A DNA stretch of 64,000 nt from an uncultured Desulfobulbaceae bacterium (GCA_945787325.1 CALZHP010000004.1:2262-66261), one strand, 5' to 3'. Positions 1 to 13,019 are shown, counted from the stretch's first letter. Notes: generated by a model from the sequence alone, not told the origin. Numbers and translations are program-made.

Positions 1-1
1 G

Positions 2-988
2 CTTGAAGAAGCAAACCGCCATCTGCAACAACAAGCAGATCATTGCATTTTATTGTGCGGTATGCTTGGTGGATCACCGGCAATGCAGAAGGTGTTTTCT
101 TTCGTCAGAAAAGTGAGTGGTAATGATTATCCGGTTCTTGTCACCGGAGGTTCAGGAACCGGCAAGGAGATGGTCGCCCACGCCATCCATGAGCTCAGTC
201 CCAGAGATAAAAAACCATTTGTAATAATAAACTGTGGGGCAATTCCTGAAAATCTTCTGGAAAGTGAATTGTTTGGTCATGAGAAGGGGTCCTTTACCGG
301 AGCGGTGTCCAGAAACATTGGGAAATTTGAGCAGGCAGATACCGGGACAATATTTCTCGATGAGATAGGAGAACTGCCTCTTGGCATGCAGGTAAAAATT
401 TTACGCTGTCTTCAGGAAGGTACCATTGAACGTGTAGGAGGGAACAAGACACTATCTCTGGATGTCCGCGTTGTAGCAGCAACAAATGTCGACTTGAAAG
501 ATGCTGTATCAAAAGGAACTTTCAGGGAAGATCTTTATTTTCGATTGAATGTAGTTCCTGTAAAATTGCCGCTTTTAAGCGAAAGGCCGGAAGATATTAT
601 TATGCTGGCCCAACATTTTCTTCAAACAGAGGCAAAGGTTCTTAAAGCAGGAAATGTATCTTTTTCTCCAAGTGCTATTGCCGCCCTGTCAGCCCACTCA
701 TGGCCAGGAAATGTCCGCGAGCTGCAGAATCGTATCCGTCGGGCTCTTTCGATTCTCTCTGGCCAGGTGATTACACCAGAAGACTTGGGGTTGGATGAGG
801 GACAGGAGGATACTGAAGAACAAAGACTTCTCACACTGCAGGAAGCACGCGAACAGGCAGAGAAACGGTGTGTTCAACATGCACTGATCCTAACCGGCAA
901 TAATATCAGCCAGGCAGCCAAACTGCTCGCTACCAGCCGCCCCACCCTCCATGATCTGATCAAGAAGCATAAAATTAACCAAGTCTAG
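2..988 (+). CDS. prsR: sigma-54-dependent enhancer-binding response regulator, 5'-truncated by the window edge; PrsR-like (PEP-CTERM-box regulator)
   Basis: The reading frame is open to the window edge. It has Walker A GGSGTGKE, the sigma-54 contact loop GSFTGA, Walker B FLDEIGE and a C-terminal Fis-type HTH (ISQAAKLLATSRPTLHDLIKK). The PrsR assignment rests on context: a PrsK-like kinase and PEP-CTERM genes lie nearby. Confidence 0.8.
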   Translation, partial: LEEANRHLQQQADHCILLCGMLGGSPAMQKVFSFVRKVSGNDYPVLVTGGSGTGKEMVAHAIHELSPRDKKPFVIINCGAIPENLLESELFGHEKGSFTGAVSRNIGKFEQADTGTIFLDEIGELPLGMQVKILRCLQEGTIERVGGNKTLSLDVRVVAATNVDLKDAVSKGTFREDLYFRLNVVPVKLPLLSERPEDIIMLAQHFLQTEAKVLKAGNVSFSPSAIAALSAHSWPGNVRELQNRIRRALSILSGQVITPEDLGLDEGQEDTEEQRLLTLQEAREQAEKRCVQHALILTGNNISQAAKLLATSRPTLHDLIKKHKINQV

Positions 989-1499
989 ACATAATCAATT
1001 GTAAAATTTAATAACGAACCGTCCAAATGTTTTTAATACTGGGATAATATGTGATGGTCCACTGCCCGGACAGTATGTGCATATTAATCGATTTCCCGCA
1101 TGACTAATGTTGATAAGGCTTAACCTGAAACTGTAAAACTTTCTGACAGTAGTTGTTGGTATGCATTTGTTCTGCGGTTCGATATATAATTAGATCTCCA
1201 GCTCTGTTAATGAACAGTCAACACAGGTTTCTTTTGTTTCAGTTATTTCTTAATCTTCACTAAGTTGTTGTAAAATTGTTTTTTTTAAATATGCTCACAG
1301 GGATATAAGTGTATTCCATTTTTCAAAACAAACAGGCCATGTCGACGAAATAGACCTGTCAGTTTTTTTTACACCGGCAGAATTGGCGGTATAGAATTCA
1401 AAATAAAATTTAGTTTATCAATAAATGTTCTAAATCTCATAGCCCATCAATAGCGTGTTTAGAAAGATATTATATGGTTTTCTTGATTACATGGTCAAC

Positions 1500-1514
1500 T
1501 GGCACATCAATTGC
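1500..1514 (+). promoter_or_regulatory. sigma-54 (-24/-12) promoter of PEP-CTERM gene 1
   Basis: TGGCAC-atcaa-TTGC matches the GG-N10-GC consensus exactly. It lies about 85 nt upstream of the ATG at 1598. Confidence 0.75.
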
Positions 1515-1597
1515 TACTCAATCTTTAAATATTGAACAATTAGATATTGCTTTTAAATATATTTAAGGACGAAATAATAACAAATGGAGATAAAACC

Positions 1598-2149
1598 ATG
1601 AAAAAGAAACTTTTTACAGGATTGGTAACCGGGATGTTCCTGGCAGGCATGGTTAGCATGGCGAATGCAAACATCATTGATATGTTTGGATATATTAATG
1701 AAAGCCATAATGTAGATTACCAATATTTTAGTCTTGATACAGCTGGATCGGTAACAGTTGTTATGGAAACATTTGATGCTCAATTTGATCCAGTAATGTA
1801 TCTCTTCCAAGATGATGGATCCTTAGATAGTTCTGATTTAATTGATTCAAATGATGATGGGGGGAGCACTCCAGCAGCAACATTCCGAAATTCATTGATC
1901 ATGCAACCCTTAGCTGCAGGAAACTATCTCACTGCTGTCTCGAGTTTTTTATTTTCTCTAGATGAAGCCATTAGCGGAGTGAACGGTGTTGAATATATTA
2001 ATGATGGCTCATATCGTTTAAATATAATGTCTTCTCAAACATTAACATCAAGATCAGGCTCTGTCCCCGAACCAGCCACCATGCTGCTGATGGGTACCGG
2101 TCTTGTAGGGCTGGCAATTACACGTCGCAGAAAAGCTAATAAAAAATAA
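1598..2149 (+). CDS. PEP-CTERM sorting-domain secreted protein 1
   Basis: Signal peptide MKKKLFTGLVTGMFLAGMVSMANA. The C-terminus VPEPATMLLMGTGLVGLAITRRRKANKK gives the PEP motif, a TM helix and a basic tail. A GGAG sits upstream of the ATG. The ORF-track start at 1547 is an upstream TTG. Confidence 0.9.
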   Translation: MKKKLFTGLVTGMFLAGMVSMANANIIDMFGYINESHNVDYQYFSLDTAGSVTVVMETFDAQFDPVMYLFQDDGSLDSSDLIDSNDDGGSTPAATFRNSLIMQPLAAGNYLTAVSSFLFSLDEAISGVNGVEYINDGSYRLNIMSSQTLTSRSGSVPEPATMLLMGTGLVGLAITRRRKANKK

Positions 2150-2200
2150 AGCGCGACACTTGTTAGCTTTAATGAGCTAACAAGACGAAATCTCTAAAAA

Positions 2201-2234
2201 GCCTGAATCGGAAAACTCCGATTCAGGCTTTTTT
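2201..2234 (+). terminator. intrinsic terminator
   Basis: GCCTGAATCGG-aaaact-CCGATTCAGGC followed by TTTTTTG. The same stem recurs at 6814. Confidence 0.8.
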
Positions 2235-2340
2235 GTGTTAGTTGAGCTTTATTTGTCAAGCAGATTGACAACTTTTAAAAAGATTTCGGTTTGATAAAGT
2301 ATTGGATCAAGAGCTTAAAATGAGTGTCGAAATAATATTC

Positions 2341-2719
2341 TCATTCCCTTCGACGCATTGAGATATTCTGAAAATTCAACTGATTATCAGATGTTGTTAT
2401 TATCGGTACAGACTCTATCCGTGGATTATCACCAAAAAGTATACAGATTTCAGTTGCATTGACTGCTAACTTTTTTTCACCAAATATCGGAAAGAAAGAC
2501 CGCTCTTGCTGATATCAACTACTTGAATTAGTGCCGGTTATGGCCTGTTTGATTTATACGATAATTCGCTCCTTTTCCGAAAAACGTGTATGAACCTTTG
2601 GCTCGTAGATTTCCTTCCATCTCCATACGCCCACCTCTAGAACCTGGGAATCCCCTTACACAATAAAAATGAAATTTCCCATAAACGGGGATCGCAATTA
2701 ACCCGATAAAACTTGTCAT
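2341..2719 (-). pseudogene. decayed PilZ-domain paralogue (copy A)
   Basis: The C-terminal half reads NATEICILFGDNPRIESVPIITTSDNQLNFQNISMRRRE*. The N-terminal half (VDISKSGLSFRYL) lies in another frame, with the shift in an A-run. Both are clearly homologous to the intact PilZ gene at 6968..7342. Confidence 0.7.
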
Positions 2720-3119
2720 CTTGTAATAAAGAATTTATTTGAAAAACTAAGATTTTTCGACACCTTAATTATGCAGTAAAAGAAACCCCAGGAAGGATCA
2801 ATACTTCTAATTATTGAAATCTCCATTTATTCTAAAGACTTAAAGGTTGGACACGTACAATTTTCTTCTGGCGATGATTATATCGAAAACCTCAGTATTG
2901 AGGAGGTTCATACGGAGAAAGATAAGCAGAGACTTCTTGCGTTGCAGTATGCGCTGGTTCAGTCTGAGAAACCCTGTGTACAAAAGGCACTTGCCATGAC
3001 GAGAAAAATACCAACTAGACAGACAAACTGCTTGTCAACATTCGCCTTAAGTCTATAGTCTGAAAGAACTAATCAAAGAACACAAGGTCGACTATCTTAG
3101 AAAAATAGCCAAACAACAA

Positions 3120-3979
3120 ATGATAATGTCATTTTCACAGAAACAAACTTTAACCACTATTGCGGGTACCACTCACTTTGCAAGTCAATGGACTGTAAGC
3201 ATCATTTTATTGTCTGTTATTCTCAGTAGTTCACTCCCCCTGACAGCCGCCGCAGCCAGGTCGGCCGAAGATATTTTGGTGGTTTATAACTCGGCTATAC
3301 TGGCCAGCCAAGAGGTTGCAGAACACTATAAAAAAAAAGAAAAATACCTCCGGAAAACGTGCTGGGCCTTTCCCTTCCTGATGCAGAGCAGATCTCCCGA
3401 CAGGAGTATGATCTGGAACTTGTAAAACCTCTCAGGGCACATATTCAAAAGCTCAGGGCAAAGGGCAGTAAGCCTGTCATTCTGCTGGTCTACGGTATCC
3501 CACTAATAATAAGAGAAGAAGCCGGCCAAGAGGGAAAAGCATCTGACAAGACCTCGGTTGCGGTGGACAGCGAACTTAACTTGATCCTGGATTACCGCTA
3601 TCCGAAGGCCGTCTGACTGCCCAACATGTTTCTCCCCAAATTCCACTCCCTGCCGGAGATCGAGGCCATCCGGTATAATTTAATAATGGTAGCAAGAATC
3701 GACGGACCGACACCGGCCATTGCCAAACGCCTGGTCGACGATGCTATAACAGTTGAAGAGAAGGGGTGACCGCCAACCTGGGTCCAGTACAGGAGCCATA
3801 TCTACAATCCTTCCCTCTGCCCGATGTCTTCTTCCCACTCCTGATGAGCGGACGGCTTCCCTTGGTAGAAGGTCTATTACAACAGCATCCCCAACCTTTC
3901 CTGGAGGCAAGTCCTAATCGGCCACCCGCTTTACACGCCATTTAATAACAAACCAGCCATTGATGAACCGTCAGAGTAA
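3120..3979 (+). pseudogene. decayed secreted protein gene (TIGR03790-like family, name recalled from memory)
   Basis: Signal peptide plus ILVVYNS..EVAEHYKKK, then a frameshift in an A9 tract (3330-3338) into KKRKIPPENVLGLSLPD. There are in-frame TGA codons at 3614 and 3767, and later stops. The original C-terminus GHPLYTPF is still readable near 3917-3979. Confidence 0.65.
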
Positions 3980-4307
3980 TTCTCTTTTACATTCAAGAAA
4001 TCCCAAGGAGCTGTTACAAAATATGCTGAGTGACGATGTGGATACCTTACTCCTGATGGACCCTTTATAACTCCTGAAGTTATCAACAGGGCATAATAAA
4101 ATTCAATACATTACGGGCGCATCACCAGTTCGAATCCGGCTTTTACGCGCCCGAAGGAAGAACCCCTGGAGTGATGCCGACAAAATATGTAATCGAGTAT
4201 TTCCACAGTGATACCTAGTCAAACTGTCAGCCAATCAACAAATAAACGATATCCATAGGTCAAGTGTAAAATATTCTGACATCAACTGTTTTACCTGTGG
4301 CAGCGAC

Positions 4308-4340
4308 AAAAAAATCCCCTGCACCGAAGTACAAGGGATT
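4308..4340 (-). terminator. intrinsic terminator of PEP-CTERM gene 2
   Basis: The minus-strand RNA forms CCCUUGUAC-UUCG-GUGCAGGGG followed by a U7 run. Confidence 0.7.
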
Positions 4341-4364
4341 TAATGATACTATAAAAAAATCAGA

Positions 4365-5093
4365 TTAAGATTTGTTGGATTTTTTTCTGCGGGCCGCGGC
4401 AAGACCAACCAGACCGGTACCGAAGAGAAGCATGGTGGAAGGCTCAGGTACAGAGTTAGATGTAGATTCGTAAGCAACCGCGACTTGTCCGGGAGACGGG
4501 TTGGCATAAGTTACCAGCGCAGTTCCTCCGGTTATACCACCTACATAATTACCACTAAAACTGGTCACGCCGGCCATCAGCGGATCAGCAGCAATGCTCA
4601 CAAGACCAGTAGATGCTACGCCGCCAACATTGAAAGACATTGAGCTGCCAAGATAGGACAGGATTCCGTTGGCATTATTATTGATAGTGTCATAAATTGG
4701 TCCTTCTCCGATTACAACAAGATTGCCACCACCGTCTATAAAAGTCGAAAGCAGTGCAAGTTCAGTAGCGCTCCAGGCGTCATTGGTAGAGGCAACAACC
4801 CACTCCATGTCAACCAAAGCACTCGCAGACATGGCTCCAGAAGAAAAATTGCCACCATTAGCACCGATACGGCTTGACCAGTTGGTAAGAGTCCAATTAC
4901 TGGATGCTGTTCGTCCAAATACGTCATCCCCATTAAAAAGGTTGCTGAAAAACTGATCATTTATGCTACTACCAATATTACTGTCAGCAACGCTAATGAT
5001 GTTTGCGTTCACGCTAGACACCGAAAATATTAACATAGTAGTGATTACTACCAGCATCAATGAAAGCGGTTGGGTTTTTCTTAGTTGGATCAT
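4365..5093 (-). CDS. PEP-CTERM sorting-domain secreted protein 2
   Basis: Signal peptide ending SVNA. The C-terminus is VPEPSTMLLFGTGLVGLAAARRKKSNKS. A strong AAGGAGG RBS precedes the ATG. Confidence 0.9.
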   Translation of the reverse strand: MIQLRKTQPLSLMLVVITTMLIFSVSSVNANIISVADSNIGSSINDQFFSNLFNGDDVFGRTASSNWTLTNWSSRIGANGGNFSSGAMSASALVDMEWVVASTNDAWSATELALLSTFIDGGGNLVVIGEGPIYDTINNNANGILSYLGSSMSFNVGGVASTGLVSIAADPLMAGVTSFSGNYVGGITGGTALVTYANPSPGQVAVAYESTSNSVPEPSTMLLFGTGLVGLAAARRKKSNKS

Positions 5094-5162
5094 GGTGTCC
5101 TCCTTATTATTTTAAATTTTACCAATTTTTTACCAATTTAAATTAAATTATGTCATTTTAAT

Positions 5163-5177
5163 GCATCAAACATGCCA
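5163..5177 (-). promoter_or_regulatory. sigma-54 (-24/-12) promoter of PEP-CTERM gene 2
   Basis: The minus strand reads TGGCAT-gtttg-ATGC, with GG-N10-GC spacing preserved. It lies about 70 nt upstream of the ATG at 5093. Confidence 0.6.
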
Positions 5178-5301
5178 GAATTGTAACATGCCGATTTGCC
5201 TGGATAATTCAAGATATGCATTTAGTTGACTAGCAAAATTGGAAATATTTCCGACACCCAGATACAAACCATGATTATTTGCTTCCTTCTATAATATTGT
5301 G

Positions 5302-5660
5302 TTATTTTGATATGTTAGGCACGTCTCCTATGAAGCAGTTTAAATATATCTCGTATTTTACCAAAACGGGCCCAAATTTGGTGTCGAAATATTTTACACA
5401 TCCCCTTCTACGCATGGAGATATTCTCAAAATTCAATTGATTATCAGATGTTGTTTTCATCGGCACAGACTCAATCCATGGGTTATCACCTAGAAGTCTA
5501 CAGATTTCAGTTGCATTGCCTGCCATCTTTTCTTAACCAAGATACCGGAAAGAAAGTCCACCCTAACTGATATCAATAACATGATACATGGCACCGGTTG
5601 TACTTTGACCCACTAAAACAGTTTTTCGCTTCTTAACCGAAAACAGTGCACAGATTTATA
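5302..5660 (-). pseudogene. decayed PilZ-domain paralogue (copy B)
   Basis: Reads SVKKRKTVLVGQSTTGAMYHVIDIS*GGLSFRYLG*EKMAGNATEICRLLGDNPWIESVPMKTTSDNQLNFENISMRRRG. There are two in-frame stops relative to the intact copy. The native C-terminal roughly 20 codons are deleted and replaced by read-through. Confidence 0.75.
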
Positions 5661-5912
5661 TCTCAGGATTTTTTCCGTCCTACAAGATATCTATTTAAAA
5701 AATACAGGAACTTTGTCACAGTAAGCTTGGCAATTTTCACTGTACTGGATTTGCACAGTTAAGCTGACAAACACTTATTCTGCTGATTAATAAAGCATAA
5801 CACTTAATTACATTTCTCCACGAAACATCCAGATGTGGATTTTTTCAAAATATTTCCTGAGATAAAGTTACATTTTCAGGAAAATACTTACTTATATGAT
5901 GATTTTTTTCGG

Positions 5913-5938
5913 ATATCTGTAATTCAAATTACAGATAT
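5913..5938. promoter_or_regulatory. perfect 12-bp inverted repeat, candidate enhancer (UAS) or operator
   Basis: ATATCTGTAATT-ca-AATTACAGATAT, located about 115-140 nt upstream of the sigma-54 promoter at 6051. Confidence 0.3.
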
Positions 5939-6050
5939 ATGAAAATAAAATGTCCGTGTTTTTTACAACAGCATTAAATGGTATGCTTTACACCTCGTCA
6001 TTAGCGTGATTACAGACTATTCAATAATTTTATTATCTCTTAATTGGAAA

Positions 6051-6066
6051 TGGCATAGTATATGCT
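6051..6066 (+). promoter_or_regulatory. sigma-54 (-24/-12) promoter of PEP-CTERM gene 3
   Basis: TGGCAT-agtat-ATGCT, with GG-N10-GC spacing preserved. It lies about 75 nt upstream of the ATG at 6142. Confidence 0.6.
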
Positions 6067-6141
6067 TAATAATGAACACATATATAATTTGAGATATTTT
6101 ATTTATGATATTGGTAAGCTAATAAAAATTTGGGGATACAG

Positions 6142-6762
6142 ATGAAGAAGGCAATGATTAGTTTAACTTCCATGTTTTTGGTAGTTGGCTTGATTGGAGT
6201 TGCAAATGCGACGTTGATCAATTTCGATTTTACCGGCGGTGACAATACATGGAATACAGACAGTGCAATTTTTACAGGTGATGACGGTTCAACAAGGACT
6301 CGAGCTACTGCTATTCCTTCCAGCAGTAGAAACCTTTATTTAGGTCAAGATGGTCTTGGTGTCTACGGTTTTCGTGACAGCGCTGAATATGATGATGCGC
6401 AAGTCGATGGATATCAAATTAATGAATGGATTAATTTTGACTTTCGTAGTCCTGTCAGATTGGTTTCAGCAAGTTTTAGTCATGTTGGCTCCAACGATGA
6501 TTTTGCCTTTTATGCCAATGGTAGATATTTCCAAAGTACAGACATCCCAAATAGTCATACATATACGTTCCAACAGACATGGATATCGAGTCGCTTTTGG
6601 ATCGGTGCAGTTGCTGATAACGATGATTTTTTCATATCAGGTATACAAATTGACGATGGTGCACATGGTGCCCCTGTTCCCGAACCAGCCACTATGATGC
6701 TGATGGGCACAGGTCTTGCCGGTCTAGCGTTCTCCCGTCGTAAAAAAGCAAATAAAGCGTAA
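6142..6762 (+). CDS. PEP-CTERM sorting-domain secreted protein 3
   Basis: Signal peptide MKKAMISLTSMFLVVGLIGVANA. The C-terminus is VPEPATMMLMGTGLAGLAFSRRKKANKA. The ORF-track start at 6130 is an upstream TTG. Confidence 0.9.
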   Translation: MKKAMISLTSMFLVVGLIGVANATLINFDFTGGDNTWNTDSAIFTGDDGSTRTRATAIPSSSRNLYLGQDGLGVYGFRDSAEYDDAQVDGYQINEWINFDFRSPVRLVSASFSHVGSNDDFAFYANGRYFQSTDIPNSHTYTFQQTWISSRFWIGAVADNDDFFISGIQIDDGAHGAPVPEPATMMLMGTGLAGLAFSRRKKANKA

Positions 6763-6813
6763 TGAATGAAATGAGTTGGCAATACTGAGATGACTTAAAT
6801 ATTCAAAGATAAA

Positions 6814-6847
6814 GCCTGAATCGGAGTAATCCGATTCAGGCTTTTTT
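6814..6847 (+). terminator. intrinsic terminator (paralogous to the one at 2201)
   Basis: GCCTGAATCGG-agtaat-CCGATTCAGGC followed by TTTTTT. Confidence 0.8.
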
Positions 6848-6967
6848 CATATATATTGTAAGATTTTTGGGATAGTCCAATCGATATTCAGCTTTGGGTA
6901 TGGTTGTGATCCGTTTTGTTCTCAAATTTAAAGGTGGCACGTGTGTCAAAATATTTTACACATCCCT

Positions 6968-7342
6968 TTATGTGTCTACCCTTTGCATAAATTCCTCAAG
7001 CTGAGACTTCTGAGCGGAGGTAAGTGAATCGAACTGTAATCCCCTCCGACGCATGGAGATATTGTCAATATTAAAGTGAATATCAGACGTGGTTTTTATC
7101 GGAACCTTCTCCAACCATATATTGTCATTAAGAAGAATGCTAAGTTCACTCACATTGTTAGCCAACTCTTGCTCACCAAGATATCGGAAAGCAAGACCGA
7201 CCTTGCTGATATCAACAACATGATAAAGGGCACCGGTTGTCTTTTGGCCTACTAAAACAAGAATACGCTTCTTTACAGACAAGCGTTTATGGGCCCTTCT
7301 TTCATTGATTTGTTTATTAGCTTCCACAATACCCCCCTTCAT
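6968..7342 (-). CDS. PilZ-domain protein (c-di-GMP receptor family), the intact copy
   Basis: Both PilZ motifs are present: an RxxxR-type ERRAHKR and DISKVGLAF (D/NxSxxG). Confidence 0.8.
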   Translation of the reverse strand: MKGGIVEANKQINERRAHKRLSVKKRILVLVGQKTTGALYHVVDISKVGLAFRYLGEQELANNVSELSILLNDNIWLEKVPIKTTSDIHFNIDNISMRRRGLQFDSLTSAQKSQLEEFMQRVDT

Positions 7343-7721
7343 ATCAGGAAATATGATGCATTCACAACAAACATTGTGCCCATCAACGGGGATTTATAAT
7401 ATTACATTATATCATCGGCACATTACTGCCCGCCCTATGCCTTTTATAATTGCCCGATTGAGATAGACACCCTTACAGGTTACTCTTTTCAGTACCCCAT
7501 AGAGGTATAAATATCGACTTCGAGTACCCATGGGTAATGCCCGCAAATTCCCTTTCTAAAAGTTTAGTTCCAACACCTCAAAACTTTTCATGCAATAATA
7601 TTGCCAGTCATTTATCAGGCTGATATTATTGAATATAACTTATCGAAAACTTAATTTAATTTATGAGGCATAATTCATGTGTAAATATTTCTGACACTAG
7701 TTAACGATTTAGATATAAATC

Positions 7722-8112
7722 GTTGGCGTAGAACGCAGGGCTTAGGGCGCAAGGTCTATAAAATGAAAATTGAATAAATAAATGGCGTAAGGCTTAAGGC
7801 ATAGGGCGTAAGGCAGAATATTGAATATTGAAAAATGAATAATTGGGAGTTAAAGGTGTAGTATCCTGATAACATTCCACTAATATTAGGTACATGCCAT
7901 TTTACAATTCCCCCCTAAACCCTATGCCTTTTATTTATTCAATATTGTCCGCCTCACGCAAAAACGCTCCGCCGAAAGGTATCAAGCCTATACAAAATTT
8001 AATCTCACTTGCCCCGTTAATAACAACGCAACTTTACGTTATTGTAGCAATCTGCAATTTTCAATATTCAATATTCAATTTTCATTATAAAGGCCCTACG
8101 CCATTTAATTAT
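7722..8112. repeat. mosaic of short dispersed repeat modules in both orientations
   Basis: Modules seen: AATATTGAATATTGAA (7817-7832) and its reverse complement (8060-8076); GGCGTA(A/G)GGC (7784, 7805) and its reverse complement GCCCTACGCC (8093); CCTATGCCTTTTA (7435, 7921); ATGAAAATTGAATA (7763) and its reverse complement (8075). Confidence 0.7.
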
Positions 8113-8119
8113 CCATTCT

Positions 8120-10201
8120 TCATTCGTCATTTACAGCCGGTATCTCTACCACAAACCTGGCACCGCCTTCTTCATTATTCCCCGCAGCAATATTGCAGCC
8201 CAGGCTTTCAATAAGCCCTCTCACCTGCCAAAGACCGATGCCGCTGCCCTTAGATTTGGAGGTTTTAAACGGTTCAAATAATCCATCCGGCAGAAGTTCG
8301 GACGGTATACCCGGCCCGTTATCTGTGATTTTAAGTTCTATTATTTCAGTTGTTTTCGGAGCTGCATGAATCCTAACCGAAGTTCCGGCGCCTCCTGCCT
8401 CCAGAGAATTGAGCAGGATATTCTCAAGGATACTTGAAAATATTTCCGGGTCAGTGGTTATCTTCGTTGTATATTTGCACTTCAGATCAACCGTCAGTTC
8501 AGGGAGTTTGCGACCAAGCTTGCCAATGCAGTCTTTCAAAAATTTGCAGAGGACTAATTCCTGCCATTCTGGTGTAATTTCTCCTTTAAGCGAATGCAGG
8601 CGGTTTTGCACTTTGGCCATTCTTTTCAAAGCATCGTCCATCGATTCCAGGAGATCCTGCTGAAACACGGGATTATTGATATGCGCCGGAGCGTTTTCCC
8701 GGGCAAGAGACAGCATGGTGGCCGCGTTTTTAATATCATGGAGGACATAAGCGGAGAGGTTTTCCCAGGCGGATTGCTCGCGGGTATGGGCCAGTTCTTC
8801 GGCCATCCGGGTGGCCAGAAGTGCAGAAGCAGCCTGGGAACCCAGGGCGGCTAGAAGATCGAAATCATCGTGCCCGTAGATTCCACCGGAAAACTCCGGG
8901 CCAAGCCCGATATAACCGACACATTGTTCACCAATTGCCAGGGGCACCAGCAGGACAATTCCAGATGTATCTAAAAACACATGCTCCAGCGTGGCTAATT
9001 CATTTACTGCTTTATCATAATTGGAATCAGCCACATAAAAATGATCGTTTTCTTTAAGATGCAGTACAAGTGGATTGTCAGGGTCCAGGTTAATGTTGGG
9101 CGTTTCGGCAAACCCTTGGTCCCTGAAGGGTTTGTACCCTTGCTGGGCATCTCCAAGCCAGATCTTGATATCAGTCGTATAGAGGCTGTCGGCCAATACC
9201 TGGCGCAATGCGGCGACAACACCTTTTTCACTCAATTCTCCCTGCAGAAGAGAAGAGAATGCAAGCCATTCATCCCTGTACTCGTATTTATTCACATAAA
9301 AATTGGTGCTGATAAAATATTTCACCCGATGACGCACTTTGCCTGATAGCGAAAATATTAAAATCAGCAGTATGCCAATGATAATCAGCAGCCACTGCAG
9401 AATAAAGGGCAGAGACAATCCATAAGCCCGTATTATGAAAGAGACAATACCCACAAAAAAGAGATATGCGCCAAAGACGAGCGGCGCAATTGTCGAATAC
9501 ACAACCTTACGAGATACAAATACCTTGCGATTAAGCAATCTATGGCGGACGATGCCATACACCATCATAGACCAGGCGATCAGTAAAATAACGGACAGCA
9601 ACTGAAAGTGGCGAGGTACCAGTCGCAGATAGGTAATCCGATAGGAAGATGACCAGGCAAAGGTGCCGCTTAAAAGAAAAAAGCCGATGACTACAAATTT
9701 ATACTCCCATCGTCCTTTTAAAGTCAGTGCCCTCCAGAAAGACTCCAGATACCAGGCCAATCTAAGGGCGGCGACAAGCAATAGCAAGGAAGAAAAATAC
9801 AACAGTCCGTATTGAGGGAGGATTATCATATCTTCAACACGGTCATACACCGGCTGGCTGTACACCCAGAAACCGCCCGTACCAAATACGACGGCCGCAA
9901 GTACAACAATTATCATAATAAAAAGATTCGGCTTCTGAGCAGCAGGATTAATAGTATATTGCATCCTGTATGCCATGATAATTATGAGCAGGGAATATAC
10001 ATTTTCAGAAAATACAAGGGAGGGAATCGACTGATCCTGCAGGTGAAAGGAGAAATAGACATATTCCCCGCCAAGCAGCGTTACACTCAATAAGATTCGC
10101 ACCAGCCCGAAGGAAAATTGACGTTCCGCTTCTTTCACCCTCAGATCAAGTAAACATGAAAGCAACAGCGTAAGATTCAGGATGTAAAAAAGTGCAGTCA
10201 T
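8120..10201 (-). CDS. prsK: PEP-CTERM-system-type sensor histidine kinase (PrsK-like)
   Basis: 693 aa. It has a roughly 300-aa polytopic N-terminal membrane domain, a central GAF-like region, an H-box (LHDIKNAATML) and HATPase motifs (LNSLEAG, DNGPGIP, GSGIGLW). The architecture and size match the PrsK family, recalled from memory. Confidence 0.8.
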   Translation of the reverse strand: MTALFYILNLTLLLSCLLDLRVKEAERQFSFGLVRILLSVTLLGGEYVYFSFHLQDQSIPSLVFSENVYSLLIIIMAYRMQYTINPAAQKPNLFIMIIVVLAAVVFGTGGFWVYSQPVYDRVEDMIILPQYGLLYFSSLLLLVAALRLAWYLESFWRALTLKGRWEYKFVVIGFFLLSGTFAWSSSYRITYLRLVPRHFQLLSVILLIAWSMMVYGIVRHRLLNRKVFVSRKVVYSTIAPLVFGAYLFFVGIVSFIIRAYGLSLPFILQWLLIIIGILLILIFSLSGKVRHRVKYFISTNFYVNKYEYRDEWLAFSSLLQGELSEKGVVAALRQVLADSLYTTDIKIWLGDAQQGYKPFRDQGFAETPNINLDPDNPLVLHLKENDHFYVADSNYDKAVNELATLEHVFLDTSGIVLLVPLAIGEQCVGYIGLGPEFSGGIYGHDDFDLLAALGSQAASALLATRMAEELAHTREQSAWENLSAYVLHDIKNAATMLSLARENAPAHINNPVFQQDLLESMDDALKRMAKVQNRLHSLKGEITPEWQELVLCKFLKDCIGKLGRKLPELTVDLKCKYTTKITTDPEIFSSILENILLNSLEAGGAGTSVRIHAAPKTTEIIELKITDNGPGIPSELLPDGLFEPFKTSKSKGSGIGLWQVRGLIESLGCNIAAGNNEEGGARFVVEIPAVNDE

Positions 10202-10441
10202 GGCCTGTTTTTATTATTTTATGTCAAGGTATCAATTCAAGTAAATAATTAATGATACTTAAGGAATTATGGGAACATACTCCCATGTTCTCAGGTTTGT
10301 CAACGTTTGGTGACTTGATGTTTCAAGGGGAAATATGAGTTGATATTTTTCAACAGTTCAAATAAATAAAACAACCATTTAGATGACGATACGAAATATT
10401 GGCTCTGTGTTGAATACGTTTGCTTTATGCTAATCATCAGC

Positions 10442-11347
10442 TTACTCAACAATGACTTGTTCAAAGCTTGATGGAATTTTTATTTTAAAATCATTATCTT
10501 GCAGTGATGCGTCAGGAATTACAGAGTGTAAAGTTATTGCCACCTTGCCGTTATGATCCAGGCCTGAAACAGTTATTCTGCCAGGGAACAAGCAACTTTC
10601 AGCGTTTCGAGAAATGAATTCACCATACCTCACATCCATCTGAGTTCTCCCCTTATCATCCATCACTATATGCCTGGTGATAACTCCCCGCTCCGGATTG
10701 AATAAAATGCTCCTTGCGAATTCCTCCGATTCAAAACGTATATCAAGCCAGTAACTGCCCTCCTCTTCACCACGTCGTAAAGATATGATTTCAAAAAGGA
10801 CAGGCTGAAGCCGGCCGGTTAACCAGCCATAACTCTGTTCAGGGTTGAAGCCCTTCGGGGCATACTTTGTGAAAGTTTTTGAGTGCACTACCCCTATATA
10901 TGCCTTGTTTTCTGGTACAATTACACTGGTAAAAGTTTCTCCACTGGTACCAATAAGAAGCAAGGGCTGGCCAAGTGGGTTTACAGCTATGAATTTGAAG
11001 AATGAGGGGGAAGCGGCAAGCAGATAACCATCGAGGGTACCAGCCCGGTTCCAGAGCATTGTACTTGCAGAAAATGTTACCGAAACTTCTGCGTCTAGGC
11101 AGCAGCCGCAATCTGCCTGACGTTCTAGAACTTCTTTAAAGTCTGATATAATTTCTCTGCTTTCTAGAGCGGGAAGAAGTACGGTCTGTTGAGGAGGGGG
11201 CCTGAAGAGGGCGCACCCATGCAGAAGAAGAGACAGGAGAAAAACTGAAACCAGCGCGTTCAGAGTATTTCTGAAATCCAAACCGGCATCATTGAGGGAT
11301 GGATTTAATTTTCTGCCTGACGATCTCTTTTTTATCCTCTTCCTCAT
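10442..11347 (-). CDS. lipoprotein, LolB/DUF4292-like (function tentative)
   Basis: Lipobox LLLHGC. The ATG at 11347 overlaps the upstream TPR gene by 59 nt. An in-frame TTG at 11281 would give MDFRNTLNALVSVFLLSLLLHGC and remove the overlap. Confidence 0.6.
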   Translation of the reverse strand: MRKRIKKRSSGRKLNPSLNDAGLDFRNTLNALVSVFLLSLLLHGCALFRPPPQQTVLLPALESREIISDFKEVLERQADCGCCLDAEVSVTFSASTMLWNRAGTLDGYLLAASPSFFKFIAVNPLGQPLLLIGTSGETFTSVIVPENKAYIGVVHSKTFTKYAPKGFNPEQSYGWLTGRLQPVLFEIISLRRGEEEGSYWLDIRFESEEFARSILFNPERGVITRHIVMDDKGRTQMDVRYGEFISRNAESCLFPGRITVSGLDHNGKVAITLHSVIPDASLQDNDFKIKIPSSFEQVIVE

Positions 11348-13019
11348 AAATTTCCAATGATTTATTATATACTTCGAGGGCTTTCTGTGGCTTATTTAAC
11401 TTCAGGTAAACATCACCCATGTGTTCGAAAATAACAGCATCACTTTCCACTAGCTCGATGGCCTTTTCAAGCTCTTTTTCAGCACGCTCAATATCACCTA
11501 GTTTGAAGTAAACCCATCCCAGGCTGTCTCTGATAAAGCCATCGTCCGGCCGTGCATCTACCGCTTTCTGGATGTATTGCAATGCTTCATCAAGCCTTAT
11601 ACCTTTATCGGCCCAGGTATATCCAATATAGTTAAGGGCTGCACTGTTCTCCGGATCAAGTTCCAGAACTTTTTCCATCTTGACGATGGCATCATCCTGC
11701 TCTCCTATCCTCTCCAGGAAAAGGGCATATTCAAGATAAATCTCAACGTTATCTTTGAACTTCACTTCGGCAATATCCAGCACCGCCCTCGCTTTGTTGA
11801 GCTGTTCCTGTTCCTTATAGAGAAAGGCAAGCGCTACATGAAATCTCAGCCTCGATGTGTCATCATTTTCAATTCTTTTCTCGAATATGGCTATAGCTTC
11901 AGCGGTCCTTTTTTCCTCCTGCAAAATCCTAATCAGCAACAGGGACGCCTCTTCATACTCCTCAGCAGTAGAAGGGATTACCCTCAGCAATTCAATTGCC
12001 TCATCAGGATTACCGTTTTCATTATGTGCTATTGCCAGCAGCATGCGGGCCAGATCTGAGTCTGGATCGGTTTCCAGGATAGAAGAAAGAATGGCTATGG
12101 CCTCATCATATTTTTTCTGTGCCAAAAGAACACGTGTGATAGTTATATCTACCTTCTGTATATCTGAGGCATAGCCCCTCAGCTCGTTGAGTTCCTCAAG
12201 AGCACGCTCCGGTTCTTCCCGTGATAGGAATAGATTGACCAGCCGCGCCCGTGCCAACTCGTTGGTTTCATCTTCTTCAAGAATCCTGTGATACAAAGCG
12301 ACAGCCTTTTCAGGAAGATCCTGCTGCTCAAAAAAATCGGCCATTTCCAGGGCCAATCTGTTTGACCAGCTGATATTAAGTGCATTCTGGTAGCTTTTTT
12401 CAGCCTTTGAAACGAATTTAAGCTCTCTGTAAAGCCTGGCAAGGTAATAATGCCCCAGGTAGGAATTGGGATCTAATTTTACAAGACGAGTAAGGGCAAC
12501 CTGTGCTTTCTCGTACTGCCTATCCTGCCCATATAGACTTCCAAGCTGCAGCAGTGTCTGGGGATCTTCTTTTTTCTCAAGAATGTCGTTGTATGTTGCA
12601 GCCGCCGAATCTATATCGCCCATGCTGGAATAAATTTTGGCCAACAACAATTTGGTTCCAATGTCTTCCGGCTTTTTAGCACTGATTTTCTTGAGCCATT
12701 CAGCTGCTTCCTGCTTCCTGTCCATCCTGACTAAAAGAATAGCAAGGTCATTTGCTATGGGATCTGCTTCTGGATCACAAACCAGGGCCTTCTCATATGC
12801 TTCTCTTGCTTCATCATAGCGCTGGTCGTACTCGGCAGATTTACCCCAGAGATAATAAAAATAAGAACAGCTTACATCTGCAGGCTCGACAGCTTCCTCC
12901 TCAACAGTGACAGCTGGCTTCACTGAAGGCGCAGGAGCCTGATAGCCGGTCGTTCCAGCACAGGACCAGATGAAAAATAGAAGACATAATATTAAAAGAA
13001 ATTCTCTTTTCATTACCAT
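11289..13019 (-). CDS. TPR-repeat lipoprotein
   Basis: Signal/lipobox MVMKREFLLILCLLFFIWSCAG, followed by more than 10 TPR-like A/Y/L-periodic repeats. Confidence 0.85.
   Translation of the reverse strand: MVMKREFLLILCLLFFIWSCAGTTGYQAPAPSVKPAVTVEEEAVEPADVSCSYFYYLWGKSAEYDQRYDEAREAYEKALVCDPEADPIANDLAILLVRMDRKQEAAEWLKKISAKKPEDIGTKLLLAKIYSSMGDIDSAAATYNDILEKKEDPQTLLQLGSLYGQDRQYEKAQVALTRLVKLDPNSYLGHYYLARLYRELKFVSKAEKSYQNALNISWSNRLALEMADFFEQQDLPEKAVALYHRILEEDETNELARARLVNLFLSREEPERALEELNELRGYASDIQKVDITITRVLLAQKKYDEAIAILSSILETDPDSDLARMLLAIAHNENGNPDEAIELLRVIPSTAEEYEEASLLLIRILQEEKRTAEAIAIFEKRIENDDTSRLRFHVALAFLYKEQEQLNKARAVLDIAEVKFKDNVEIYLEYALFLERIGEQDDAIVKMEKVLELDPENSAALNYIGYTWADKGIRLDEALQYIQKAVDARPDDGFIRDSLGWVYFKLGDIERAEKELEKAIELVESDAVIFEHMGDVYLKLNKPQKALEVYNKSLEIYEEEDKKEIVRQKIKSIPQ

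Follow-up and report, generated by a model that had tools for sequence, protein, structure and literature searches.

A PilZ gene beside prsK that looks like a member of the PrsR/sigma-54 regulon, in a probably expanded and partly decayed PEP-CTERM cassette

RESULTS

An expanded PilZ/PEP-CTERM island between prsR and prsK

We analyzed a stretch of 64,000 nucleotides (nt) of DNA from an uncultured Desulfobulbaceae bacterium (GCA_945787325.1, CALZHP010000004.1:2262-66261; the window), in which an island of ∼7 kb with PilZ and PEP-CTERM genes lies between prsR, coding for a sigma-54 activator, and prsK, coding for a histidine kinase. This island very probably goes back to a compact four-gene unit, which related Desulfobacterota-like genomes carry in single copy, through expansion, rearrangement, and partial decay, as judged from the comparison of the predicted genes and regulatory sites described below. 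The PilZ/PEP-CTERM part of the unit is present three times, and only the PilZ copy beside prsK, here called PilZ-C, is still intact. Given that it has its own candidate PrsR box and sigma-54 promoter, this intact PilZ gene looks like a member of the PrsR/sigma-54 regulon. The genes and pseudogenes that carry the argument are as follows:

1..988, plus strand: the 3' two-thirds of prsR (sigma-54 activator), truncated where the window starts
1598..2149, plus strand: PEP-CTERM gene 1 (PEP1), 183 amino acids; PF07589 33.4 bits, TIGR02595 29.2 bits
2343 to about 2620, minus strand: PilZ pseudogene A (copy A); ∼75% nt identity to PilZ-C; stops and frameshifts; 77-nt 3' deletion
4365..5093, minus strand: PEP-CTERM gene 2 (PEP2), 242 amino acids; PF07589 35.2 bits
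5400..5643, minus strand: PilZ pseudogene B (copy B); 74.6% ungapped identity to PilZ-C; two in-frame stops; 77-nt 3' deletion; no promoter upstream
6142..6762, plus strand: PEP-CTERM gene 3 (PEP3), 206 amino acids; PF07589 36.4 bits
6968..7342, minus strand: PilZ-C, the intact PilZ gene; PF07238; probable start GTG at 7327, 119 amino acids (P0001)
8120..10201, minus strand: prsK, histidine kinase; TIGR02916, 325 bits versus a cutoff of 300

A single-copy cassette in related loci

For the PrsR regulon, Haft 2006 (PMC1569441) describes a predicted PrsR site, motif 1, of 17 nt ending in TTTACA, which lies 32 to 92 nt (mean, 63) upstream of a sigma-54 promoter (motif 2) before PEP-CTERM genes; the promoter, with its -24 GG and -12 GC elements, is located 23 to 221 nt ahead of the start codon. 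In Aquincola, experiments have shown that a PEP-CTERM gene depends on RpoN (PMC9850573). The boxes in our window read TGTC-N7-TTTACA, and such a 17-nt near-palindrome adjoins each PilZ copy (e.g., TGTCAAAATATTTTACA).

Profile searches yielded a tight subgroup of eight PilZ proteins scoring >160 bits, followed by a broad Desulfobacterales PilZ family with scores of ≤124 bits; the relatives carry the annotation Deltaproteobacteria or Desulfobacterales. All subgroup members whose contig is long enough show a PrsK–PilZ–PEP-CTERM arrangement. In five loci (L001, L003, L004, L005, and L006), the ancestral unit is composed of PrsK, PilZ, one PEP-CTERM gene and, where the contig reaches that far, a convergent PrsR; both PrsK and PrsR of L003 score above their curated cutoffs. 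The full order is prsK, a box and a sigma-54 promoter, PilZ, a distal box, ∼141 nt, a proximal box, ∼62 nt, a sigma-54 promoter, the PEP-CTERM gene, a terminator, and the convergent prsR. The sequence TGTC-N7-TTTACA occurs exactly three times per cassette locus, namely, before PilZ, overlapping or abutting the PilZ stop codon (in L001 and L003 to L006), and before the PEP-CTERM gene, and it occurs in none of six loci with more distant PilZ genes.

The geometry of these elements is nearly invariant despite a GC content of 56% in L003 versus 43% in the window. Sigma-54 promoters precede PilZ in L001, L003, L005, and L006; the box stands 73 nt away from the PilZ promoter in the window as well as in L003, L005, and L006 (85 nt in L001), and 66 to 68 nt separate this promoter from the PilZ start in the four relatives. 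The distal and proximal boxes are separated by 141 to 144 nt in five relatives and by 142 nt in the window (PEP2), and the proximal box and the PEP-CTERM promoter are separated by 62 to 64 nt in relatives and by 62 nt in the window (PEP2). Three proteins of the broader family (P0015, P0048, and P0008) have no PrsK/PEP-CTERM context and no boxes, suggesting that the linkage of PilZ to PrsK is specific to the tight subgroup. One metagenome scan with a protein pattern and one with the back-translated VVDIxxxGLAFRYLG gave no matches, and the genome scan gave only L002, with a 40%-identical PilZ in an unrelated context.

Apart from the cassette, some distant PilZ family members have sigma-54 activators as neighbors: in L002, PilZ and a GAF-type sigma-54 activator lie within ∼1 kb of each other (9983-10347 and 11293-12699), and in L009, PilZ lies within ∼1 kb of a receiver protein and a sigma-54 activator (6001-6378 and 7049-8475). 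No sigma-54 enhancer-binding protein was found as a neighbor in L007 and L008. The L002 PilZ open reading frame (ORF) seems truncated or frameshifted relative to its tblastn match. PilZ evolves faster than PrsK, with identities between the window and L003 of 49% for PilZ and 69% for PrsK.

Candidate PrsR boxes and sigma-54 promoters in the window

To keep the search for boxes in the window noncircular, we used a position weight matrix (PWM) that was trained solely on boxes from related loci. This yielded eight window boxes with at least 15 bits, all of them within 1132-7696, while the other 56 kb of the window contained only two matches of 12 to 13 bits; in shuffled sequence, the maximum PWM score averaged 14.2 bits. 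The strict sigma-54 pattern TGGCAY-N5-WTGCW gave four matches versus 0.37 expected, three of which precede PEP-CTERM genes. The PilZ-C promoter (TGGCAA) surfaced once one mismatch was allowed, and its score is the joint highest among the promoters of PEP1, PEP2, PEP3, and PilZ-C. The predicted sites are as follows:

1132..1148, minus strand: PrsR box distal to the PEP1 promoter; TGTCAGAAAGTTTTACA; 15.0 bits
1357..1373, plus strand: PrsR box proximal to the PEP1 promoter; TGTCAGTTTTTTTTACA; 16.2 bits; 126-nt spacer
1500..1515, plus strand: PEP1 sigma-54 promoter; TGGCACATCAATTGCT; 82 nt before ATG
2325..2341, plus strand: decayed PrsR box adjoining copy A; TGTCGAAATAATATTCT; 11.1 bits; left half intact, right half lost
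4265..4281, minus strand: orphan PrsR box just past the PEP2 terminator; TGTCAGAATATTTTACA; 19.8 bits
5162..5177, minus strand: PEP2 sigma-54 promoter; TGGCATGTTTGATGCA; 68 nt before ATG
5240..5256, minus strand: PEP2 proximal PrsR box; TGTCGGAAATATTTCCA; 16.3 bits; 62-nt spacer, as in relatives
5382..5398, plus strand: PEP2 distal PrsR box, joined directly to copy B at its truncated end; TGTCGAAATATTTTACA; 25.7 bits, the highest score of any box in the window
5951..5967, plus strand: PEP3 PrsR box; TGTCCGTGTTTTTTACA; 16.3 bits; 83-nt spacer
6051..6066, plus strand: PEP3 sigma-54 promoter; TGGCATAGTATATGCT; 75 nt before ATG
6944..6960, plus strand: PrsR box 8 nt past the PilZ-C stop codon; TGTCAAAATATTTTACA; 21.0 bits; orthologous to the distal box of the cassette
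7591..7606, minus strand: PilZ-C sigma-54 promoter; TGGCAATATTATTGCA; 10 of 11 specified positions of TGGCAC-N5-TTGCA
7680..7696, minus strand: PilZ-C PrsR box; TGTCAGAAATATTTACA; 15.5 bits; 73-nt spacer to the promoter

The spacer between motif 1 and the sigma-54 promoter falls within the published 32 to 92 nt for PilZ-C (73 nt), PEP2 (62 nt), and PEP3 (83 nt), and the distance from promoter to start codon falls within 23 to 221 nt for PEP1 (82 nt), PEP2 (68 nt), and PEP3 (75 nt).

Read against the single-copy cassette, PilZ-C occupies the orthologous position beside prsK, with the box, the promoter, and the stop-codon box at 6944; the same-strand cargo gene is gone, and PEP3 is convergent. 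Copy B and PEP2 form a second cassette with the ancestral tandem layout and the exact box geometry, suggesting that the PilZ gene died there while the flanking enhancer survived. At copy A, the same-strand PEP-CTERM gene of the cassette is absent, the neighboring PEP1 is convergent, and the box is half decayed.

A further sigma-54 consensus match, TGGCATACAGGATGCA, is located at 9960-9975 on the minus strand, inside the prsK coding sequence, and is probably due to chance.

PilZ-C, the intact gene

The start of PilZ-C is likely the GTG at 7327, which is preceded by a Shine-Dalgarno sequence (AAGGGGGG). Its product scored 25.4 bits with PF07238, versus a gathering cutoff of 22.5, over profile positions 1 to 100 of 102, and seven of the eight subgroup proteins match this family. 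Both motifs of cyclic di-GMP (c-di-GMP) binding are present, the N-terminal RxxxR as ERRAHKR and DxSxxG as DISKVG, which makes binding of c-di-GMP by PilZ-C plausible. Residues R15, R16, H18, K19, and R20 are invariant across the subgroup, and the RxxxR region is also kept in the broader family, which reads D[IM]SxGG at the second motif and is in this respect canonical like PilZ-C, unlike most PrsK-linked orthologues. PilZ domains fold as a six-stranded beta-barrel; an AlphaFold2 model of PilZ-C, with a moderate predicted local distance difference test (pLDDT) score of 71.8, shows beta-strands and a C-terminal helix. A sequence search of solved structures with PilZ-C gave no significant match; among the weak, nonsignificant Foldseek matches of the model were the PilZ structures PA0012 (8u0i), MrkH, PlzA, and the BcsA PilZ domain.

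Rfam models gave no matches at the gathering threshold anywhere in the window, arguing against a riboswitch or known RNA in the long PilZ-C leader. Comparison of this leader with the regions upstream of copies A and B showed no significant similarity; a short match, ATCCCCGTT.ATGGG, was not significant.

The surroundings of PilZ-C contain extra sequence. Between the prsK stop codon and the PilZ box (within 7700-8119), ∼370 nt carry nested inverted repeats (e.g., 19/19 at 7816-7834 and 8058-8076), a stretch that measures only 30 to 100 nt in relatives, and the PilZ-C leader (7343-7590) is ∼200 nt longer than in relatives (263 nt versus 66 to 68 nt). The sequence CCCTATGCCTTTTAT is present in both stretches (7432 and 7921). 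Both extra stretches are possibly small repeat elements that inserted here.

Copies A and B are decayed paralogues of PilZ-C

An earlier note on this DNA had described a PilZ gene in three copies, one intact and two decayed, and this description holds: a repeat search of the window places the three PilZ sequences in one three-copy family (D1), and in a blastn search of 6700-7500 against the window, copy B matches at 5400-5643 (74.6% over 244 nt, ungapped; E 1e-41) and copy A at 2343-2526 (75.1% over 185 nt; E 2e-30). The similarity is not one of low-complexity sequence. In tblastn with PilZ-C, copy B aligns to residues 21 to 101 with 64% amino acid identity and bears the two in-frame stops that had been reported, DIS*GG and YLG*EK; its N-terminal RxxxR region is lost or not alignable. 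Copy A (2347-2616) aligns to residues 10 to 100 with 44% identity, with stops, frame breaks, and a scrambled RxxxR. The frameshift in copy A, which had been placed in an A-run, is a 1-nt gap at CGATAT-TTGG just before that run, and there is a 2-nt gap further 5'. The clear homology of copy B covers 5400-5643 rather than 5302-5660, and copy A extends from 2343 to about 2620. Neither a PrsR box nor a sigma-54 promoter was found upstream of copies A and B. By these disabling lesions and lost expression signals, we classify both copies as pseudogenes.

The shared 3' deletion that had been noticed was also borne out. The homology of A and B to C ends after ISMRRRG at the identical nucleotide, and the offsets to C change by 77 nt between the body and the following motif (4696 versus 4619 for A, 1639 versus 1562 for B). 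Because P0002 and all other relatives keep the C-terminal tail, this 77-nt difference represents sequence lost from A and B, not sequence gained by C. The deletion takes away the stop codon and the C-terminal helix, has the same junction in A and B, which in C is flanked by a GGGAT direct repeat, and ends exactly at the distal PrsR box.

History of the copies

Sites grouping A with B number 34, versus 17 and 25 for the alternatives, and the synonymous divergence (dS) is 0.31 between A and B and 0.72 to 0.76 between either of them and C. On this comparison, A and B are sisters in the gene body, with the deletion common to both. The ratio of nonsynonymous to synonymous divergence (dN/dS), in tests that rest on just 45 to 81 codons, was 0.36 for C-B (P = 0.006), 0.36 to 0.39 versus C overall, and 0.34 for B-A (P about 0.03, 45 codons). 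Since substitutions between the copies are mostly synonymous, A and B appear to have been functional formerly, which suggests that the extra copies were once-selected functional paralogues that died relatively recently and were not dead on arrival. The gene body and the flanks conflict, however: the body groups A with B, whereas in its flanks A resembles C (convergent, with homologous terminators) and B resembles the outgroup. To reconcile the two, one has to assume either that A and B underwent gene conversion with each other or that the events were independent. Together with the small number of codons behind the dN/dS tests, this conflict weighs against the history proposed here.

The earlier note had explained the copies by duplication of one convergent block of PEP-CTERM gene, terminator, and PilZ gene, with the cargo later diverged or replaced and the PilZ copies decayed. 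Copies A and C are indeed each convergent with a PEP-CTERM gene, and the two terminators of these genes share the same stem, as had been stated: 34 of 37 positions (6811-6847 for PEP3) agree, the arms of the stem and the T-tracts being the same in both, and the three mismatches are confined to the 4-nt loop (AAAC versus GTAA). The two sides are also collinear: the offset stays at 4613 to 4619 all the way from the end of the PEP-CTERM coding sequence past the terminator and up to the box, and the terminator-to-box spacers have similar lengths (89 versus 95 nt). The homology of copies and terminators thus stands, but a continuous homologous block was not found. Within the A/C block, similarity is limited to the coding end of the PEP-CTERM domain (69/89 nt), the stems of the terminators, the 17-nt box, and the body of PilZ, whereas the 3' untranslated region (z 1.6) and the terminator-to-box spacer (z -1.1) show no similarity between the A and C sides. 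The coding end is also similar to that of PEP2 (59 to 60 of 89), so that its similarity reflects the PEP-CTERM protein family, and the restriction of the terminator differences to the loop suggests selection on the hairpin and speaks against a recent copy. At a dS of about 0.7 between copies (about 0.75 for A-C), neutral flanks such as the spacer are expected to be saturated; their dissimilarity is thus no bar to the proposal, and it leaves a one-block duplication of A and C neither shown nor excluded. A one-block duplication does not describe copy B, which lies in tandem upstream of PEP2 as in the outgroup and is not convergent with cargo, while A is sister to B and not to C; it also leaves out the PrsR boxes and promoters that define the unit, whose ancestral form is the tandem PrsK–PilZ–PEP-CTERM. 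We regard the block duplication as possible but doubtful and favor the expansion and rearrangement of the four-gene unit.

Further explanations concern the boxes and the decayed copies themselves. Inverted pairs of the 17-nt motif flank PilZ-C (6944/7680), PEP2 (4265/5382), and PEP1 (1132/2325) in a locus that is clearly rearranged, as would be expected if the motifs were terminal inverted repeats of a small mobile element carrying PilZ/PEP-CTERM genes. We consider this highly improbable, given that the motif fits the published PrsR motif 1 (PMC1569441) and lies at a fixed 62 to 85 nt from sigma-54 promoters in five single-copy relatives across the difference in GC content (56% versus 43%), that the remaining 56 kb of the window and the flanking parts of the 20-kb relatives contain no copies of it, and that no transposase or target-site duplications were seen. 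Retention of A and B as functional elements, be it as truncated PilZ proteins made by recoding, as noncoding RNA, or as enhancer-spacer DNA, would agree with the low A-B dN/dS, which suggests selection after the split, and with the absence of indels over 244 nt in copy B. It is nevertheless very unlikely: the reading frame of B is interrupted by TAG and TAA and no longer includes the RxxxR region, that of A is disrupted by stops and two frameshifts, neither copy has an upstream box, a sigma-54 promoter, or an Rfam match, their bodies lie outside the box-to-promoter interval and thus are not spacer DNA, and the low dN/dS equally fits past function followed by recent decay. That the lesions are sequencing or assembly errors in a genome that really has three intact PilZ genes is hardly credible, even though the source appears to be a 67-kb contig of a metagenome assembly, homopolymer indels are a common error, and the 1-nt gap of copy A adjoins an A-run. 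The lesions of B are two substitutions and a 77-nt deletion whose junction is identical to that in A, the copies are 25% diverged and hence are not collapsed repeats, and neighboring genes (the PrsR fragment and the TIGR03790-family gene described below) are independently decayed while the housekeeping genes are intact. The triplication and decay themselves are ordinary genome turnover.

Other contents of the island and its surroundings

The remaining features of the island comprise terminators and gene debris:

2196..2233, plus strand: PEP1 intrinsic terminator; 17-bp stem, then T-run
2885..3092, plus strand: prsR C-terminus fragment (pseudogene debris); 40% amino acid identity to PrsR residues 243 to 309, in two frames
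3120..3945, plus strand: TIGR03790-family pseudogene, multiply frameshifted; three ORF pieces, TIGR03790 model positions 32-115, 123-165, and 273-306
4312..4341, minus strand: PEP2 intrinsic terminator; 13-bp stem, then T-run
6811..6844, plus strand: PEP3 intrinsic terminator; 15-bp stem, then T-run

PrsR has TIGR02915 (PEP-CTERM-box response regulator) as its best NCBIfam match, at 391 bits, which stays under the cutoff of 502.6 because the gene is truncated, and contains the Pfam domains Sigma54_activat and HTH_8. PrsK is 69% identical to PrsK of L003, and a PrsT-like tetratricopeptide repeat (TPR) protein is encoded past prsK. PEP1, PEP2, and PEP3 all score above both the PF07589 and TIGR02595 cutoffs, and their translations show the hydrophobic N termini expected of signal peptides. 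The terminators of PEP1 and PEP3 are the two strongest terminator predictions in the region. Directly after the PEP1 terminator, at 2254-2270, we observed a perfect palindrome, TGTCAAGCAGATTGACA, with a weak box score on both strands.

Between copy A and PEP2, the island contains the prsR fragment, which is frameshifted and corresponds to the C-terminal helix-turn-helix (HTH) region, and the TIGR03790-family pseudogene, which is spread over at least three frames and shows an internal loss. We read this debris as added signs of repeated rearrangement and decay. The rest of the 64-kb window consists of the dcw cluster and housekeeping genes, and these housekeeping genes are intact.

DISCUSSION

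The arrangement described here suggests a simple regulatory scheme. PrsK would phosphorylate PrsR, which would bind the 17-nt boxes and switch on the sigma-54 promoters before PilZ and before each of the three PEP-CTERM genes. The PilZ protein, a single-domain protein with canonical c-di-GMP-binding motifs, would in this way be co-induced with the exosortase cargo and would probably couple the c-di-GMP level to a downstream step, such as cargo sorting, anchoring of exopolysaccharide (EPS), or feedback on PrsK/PrsR. The earlier note had taken the pairing of PilZ and PEP-CTERM genes as a hint of c-di-GMP input into PEP-CTERM protein or EPS biology. The link between PilZ and PEP-CTERM genes appears real and the binding motifs are present, but on the evidence PilZ stands on the output side of PrsK/PrsR; any role of c-di-GMP is to be understood as a prediction from these motifs. 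Going further, the PrsK-linked PilZ might be a dedicated c-di-GMP-sensing partner: PrsR would induce it, and it would in turn influence PrsR, PrsK, or the exosortase, with the result that cargo would be expressed or sorted only at high c-di-GMP. We consider this idea speculative and rather unlikely. If it were true, the PrsR box at the stop codon would tie PilZ transcription to activation of the downstream cargo promoter.

Several observations weigh against this scheme and the reading of the island behind it. The regulatory roles, i.e., binding by PrsR, promoter activation, and co-induction of PilZ, are deduced from motif matches and conserved geometry, and not all of the geometry agrees. The proximal box of PEP1 lies 126 nt from its promoter, beyond the 32 to 92 nt of Haft 2006, and the PilZ-C promoter is 263 nt away from the GTG start (248 nt if counted to the ATG), which exceeds the range of 23 to 221 nt and is far from the 66 to 68 nt of the four relatives, suggesting that it may be impaired in this genome. 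For the strong boxes at 6944 and 4265, no partner promoter was found: a search downstream of each, which in the case of 6944 is antisense to PilZ-C, showed no sigma-54 site on the expected strand up to a distance of 150 nt. As for PilZ itself, six of the seven PrsK-linked orthologues read DIA[QE]GG, with Ala for the Ser of DxSxxG, and a Foldseek search of the PilZ-C model against the PDB gave no match at E ≤ 1e-3. Finally, no exosortase gene is located within the 64-kb window.

The island shares much with the PrsK/PrsR/PrsT system as described in Haft 2006 (PMC1569441): PrsK and PrsR flank PEP-CTERM genes that form single-gene units and have long stretches of DNA upstream, a 17-nt motif with TTTACA at its end precedes a GG/GC sigma-54 promoter by 62 to 83 nt, this promoter is itself 68 to 82 nt before the start, and motif 1 is sometimes repeated. 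It differs from that description in that a PilZ gene, which is not a PEP-CTERM gene, lies between prsK and the cargo with its own box and promoter, that a box is found on or right next to the PilZ stop codon, always 141 to 144 nt from the proximal box, that the convergent prsK and prsR have the cassette between them, whereas Haft 2006 reports them as usually tandem, and that in this genome the cassette is amplified and partly pseudogenized. We found no paper in the searchable literature linking PilZ with PrsK/PrsR or PEP-CTERM. The PrsK–PilZ–PEP-CTERM cassette with a PrsR site at the PilZ stop codon is thus an apparently undescribed, modest variation on regulation that is already known.

The typical ligand of PilZ proteins is c-di-GMP, and stand-alone single-domain receptors of this kind include PA4608/MapZ and PA0012. 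PilZ-C resembles such receptors (PF07238) in its size of about 120 amino acids, in the order of RxxxR followed by DxSxxG, and possibly in its fold, a predicted beta-barrel with a C-terminal helix, whereas the PrsK-linked orthologues mostly have DxAxxG and a significant structure match was not obtained. Sigma-54 enhancer-binding proteins that control biofilm or EPS genes in response to c-di-GMP are exemplified by FleQ of Pseudomonas and VpsR of Vibrio, in which the activator itself binds c-di-GMP. The cassette likewise would combine sigma-54-dependent genes for matrix or surface proteins and a c-di-GMP-sensing component in one circuit, but here that component is a separate PilZ protein encoded as a predicted target of the activator. 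The distant PilZ family members beside other sigma-54 activators (L002 and L009) hint at a broader partnership between PilZ proteins and enhancer-binding proteins.

In its history, the island resembles ordinary duplication and pseudogenization, with three local copies of which one is kept, a shared deletion flanked by GGGAT, and signs of gene conversion. It differs in that the decay is patterned by the embedded box, which is kept where it still precedes a PEP-CTERM promoter (B/PEP2) and has decayed at A, where it does not. An embedded enhancer may thus shape the decay of a pseudogene, with the coding sequence rotting up to the edge of the site while the site itself persists at B and is half decayed at A.

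PEP-CTERM/exosortase systems are widespread in sediment and biofilm bacteria, and targets of PrsK/PrsR beyond the cargo genes are hardly known. A conserved PilZ gene between prsK and the cargo, with its own candidate box and promoter, is a concrete, testable candidate for a link from c-di-GMP signaling to exosortase cargo or EPS.

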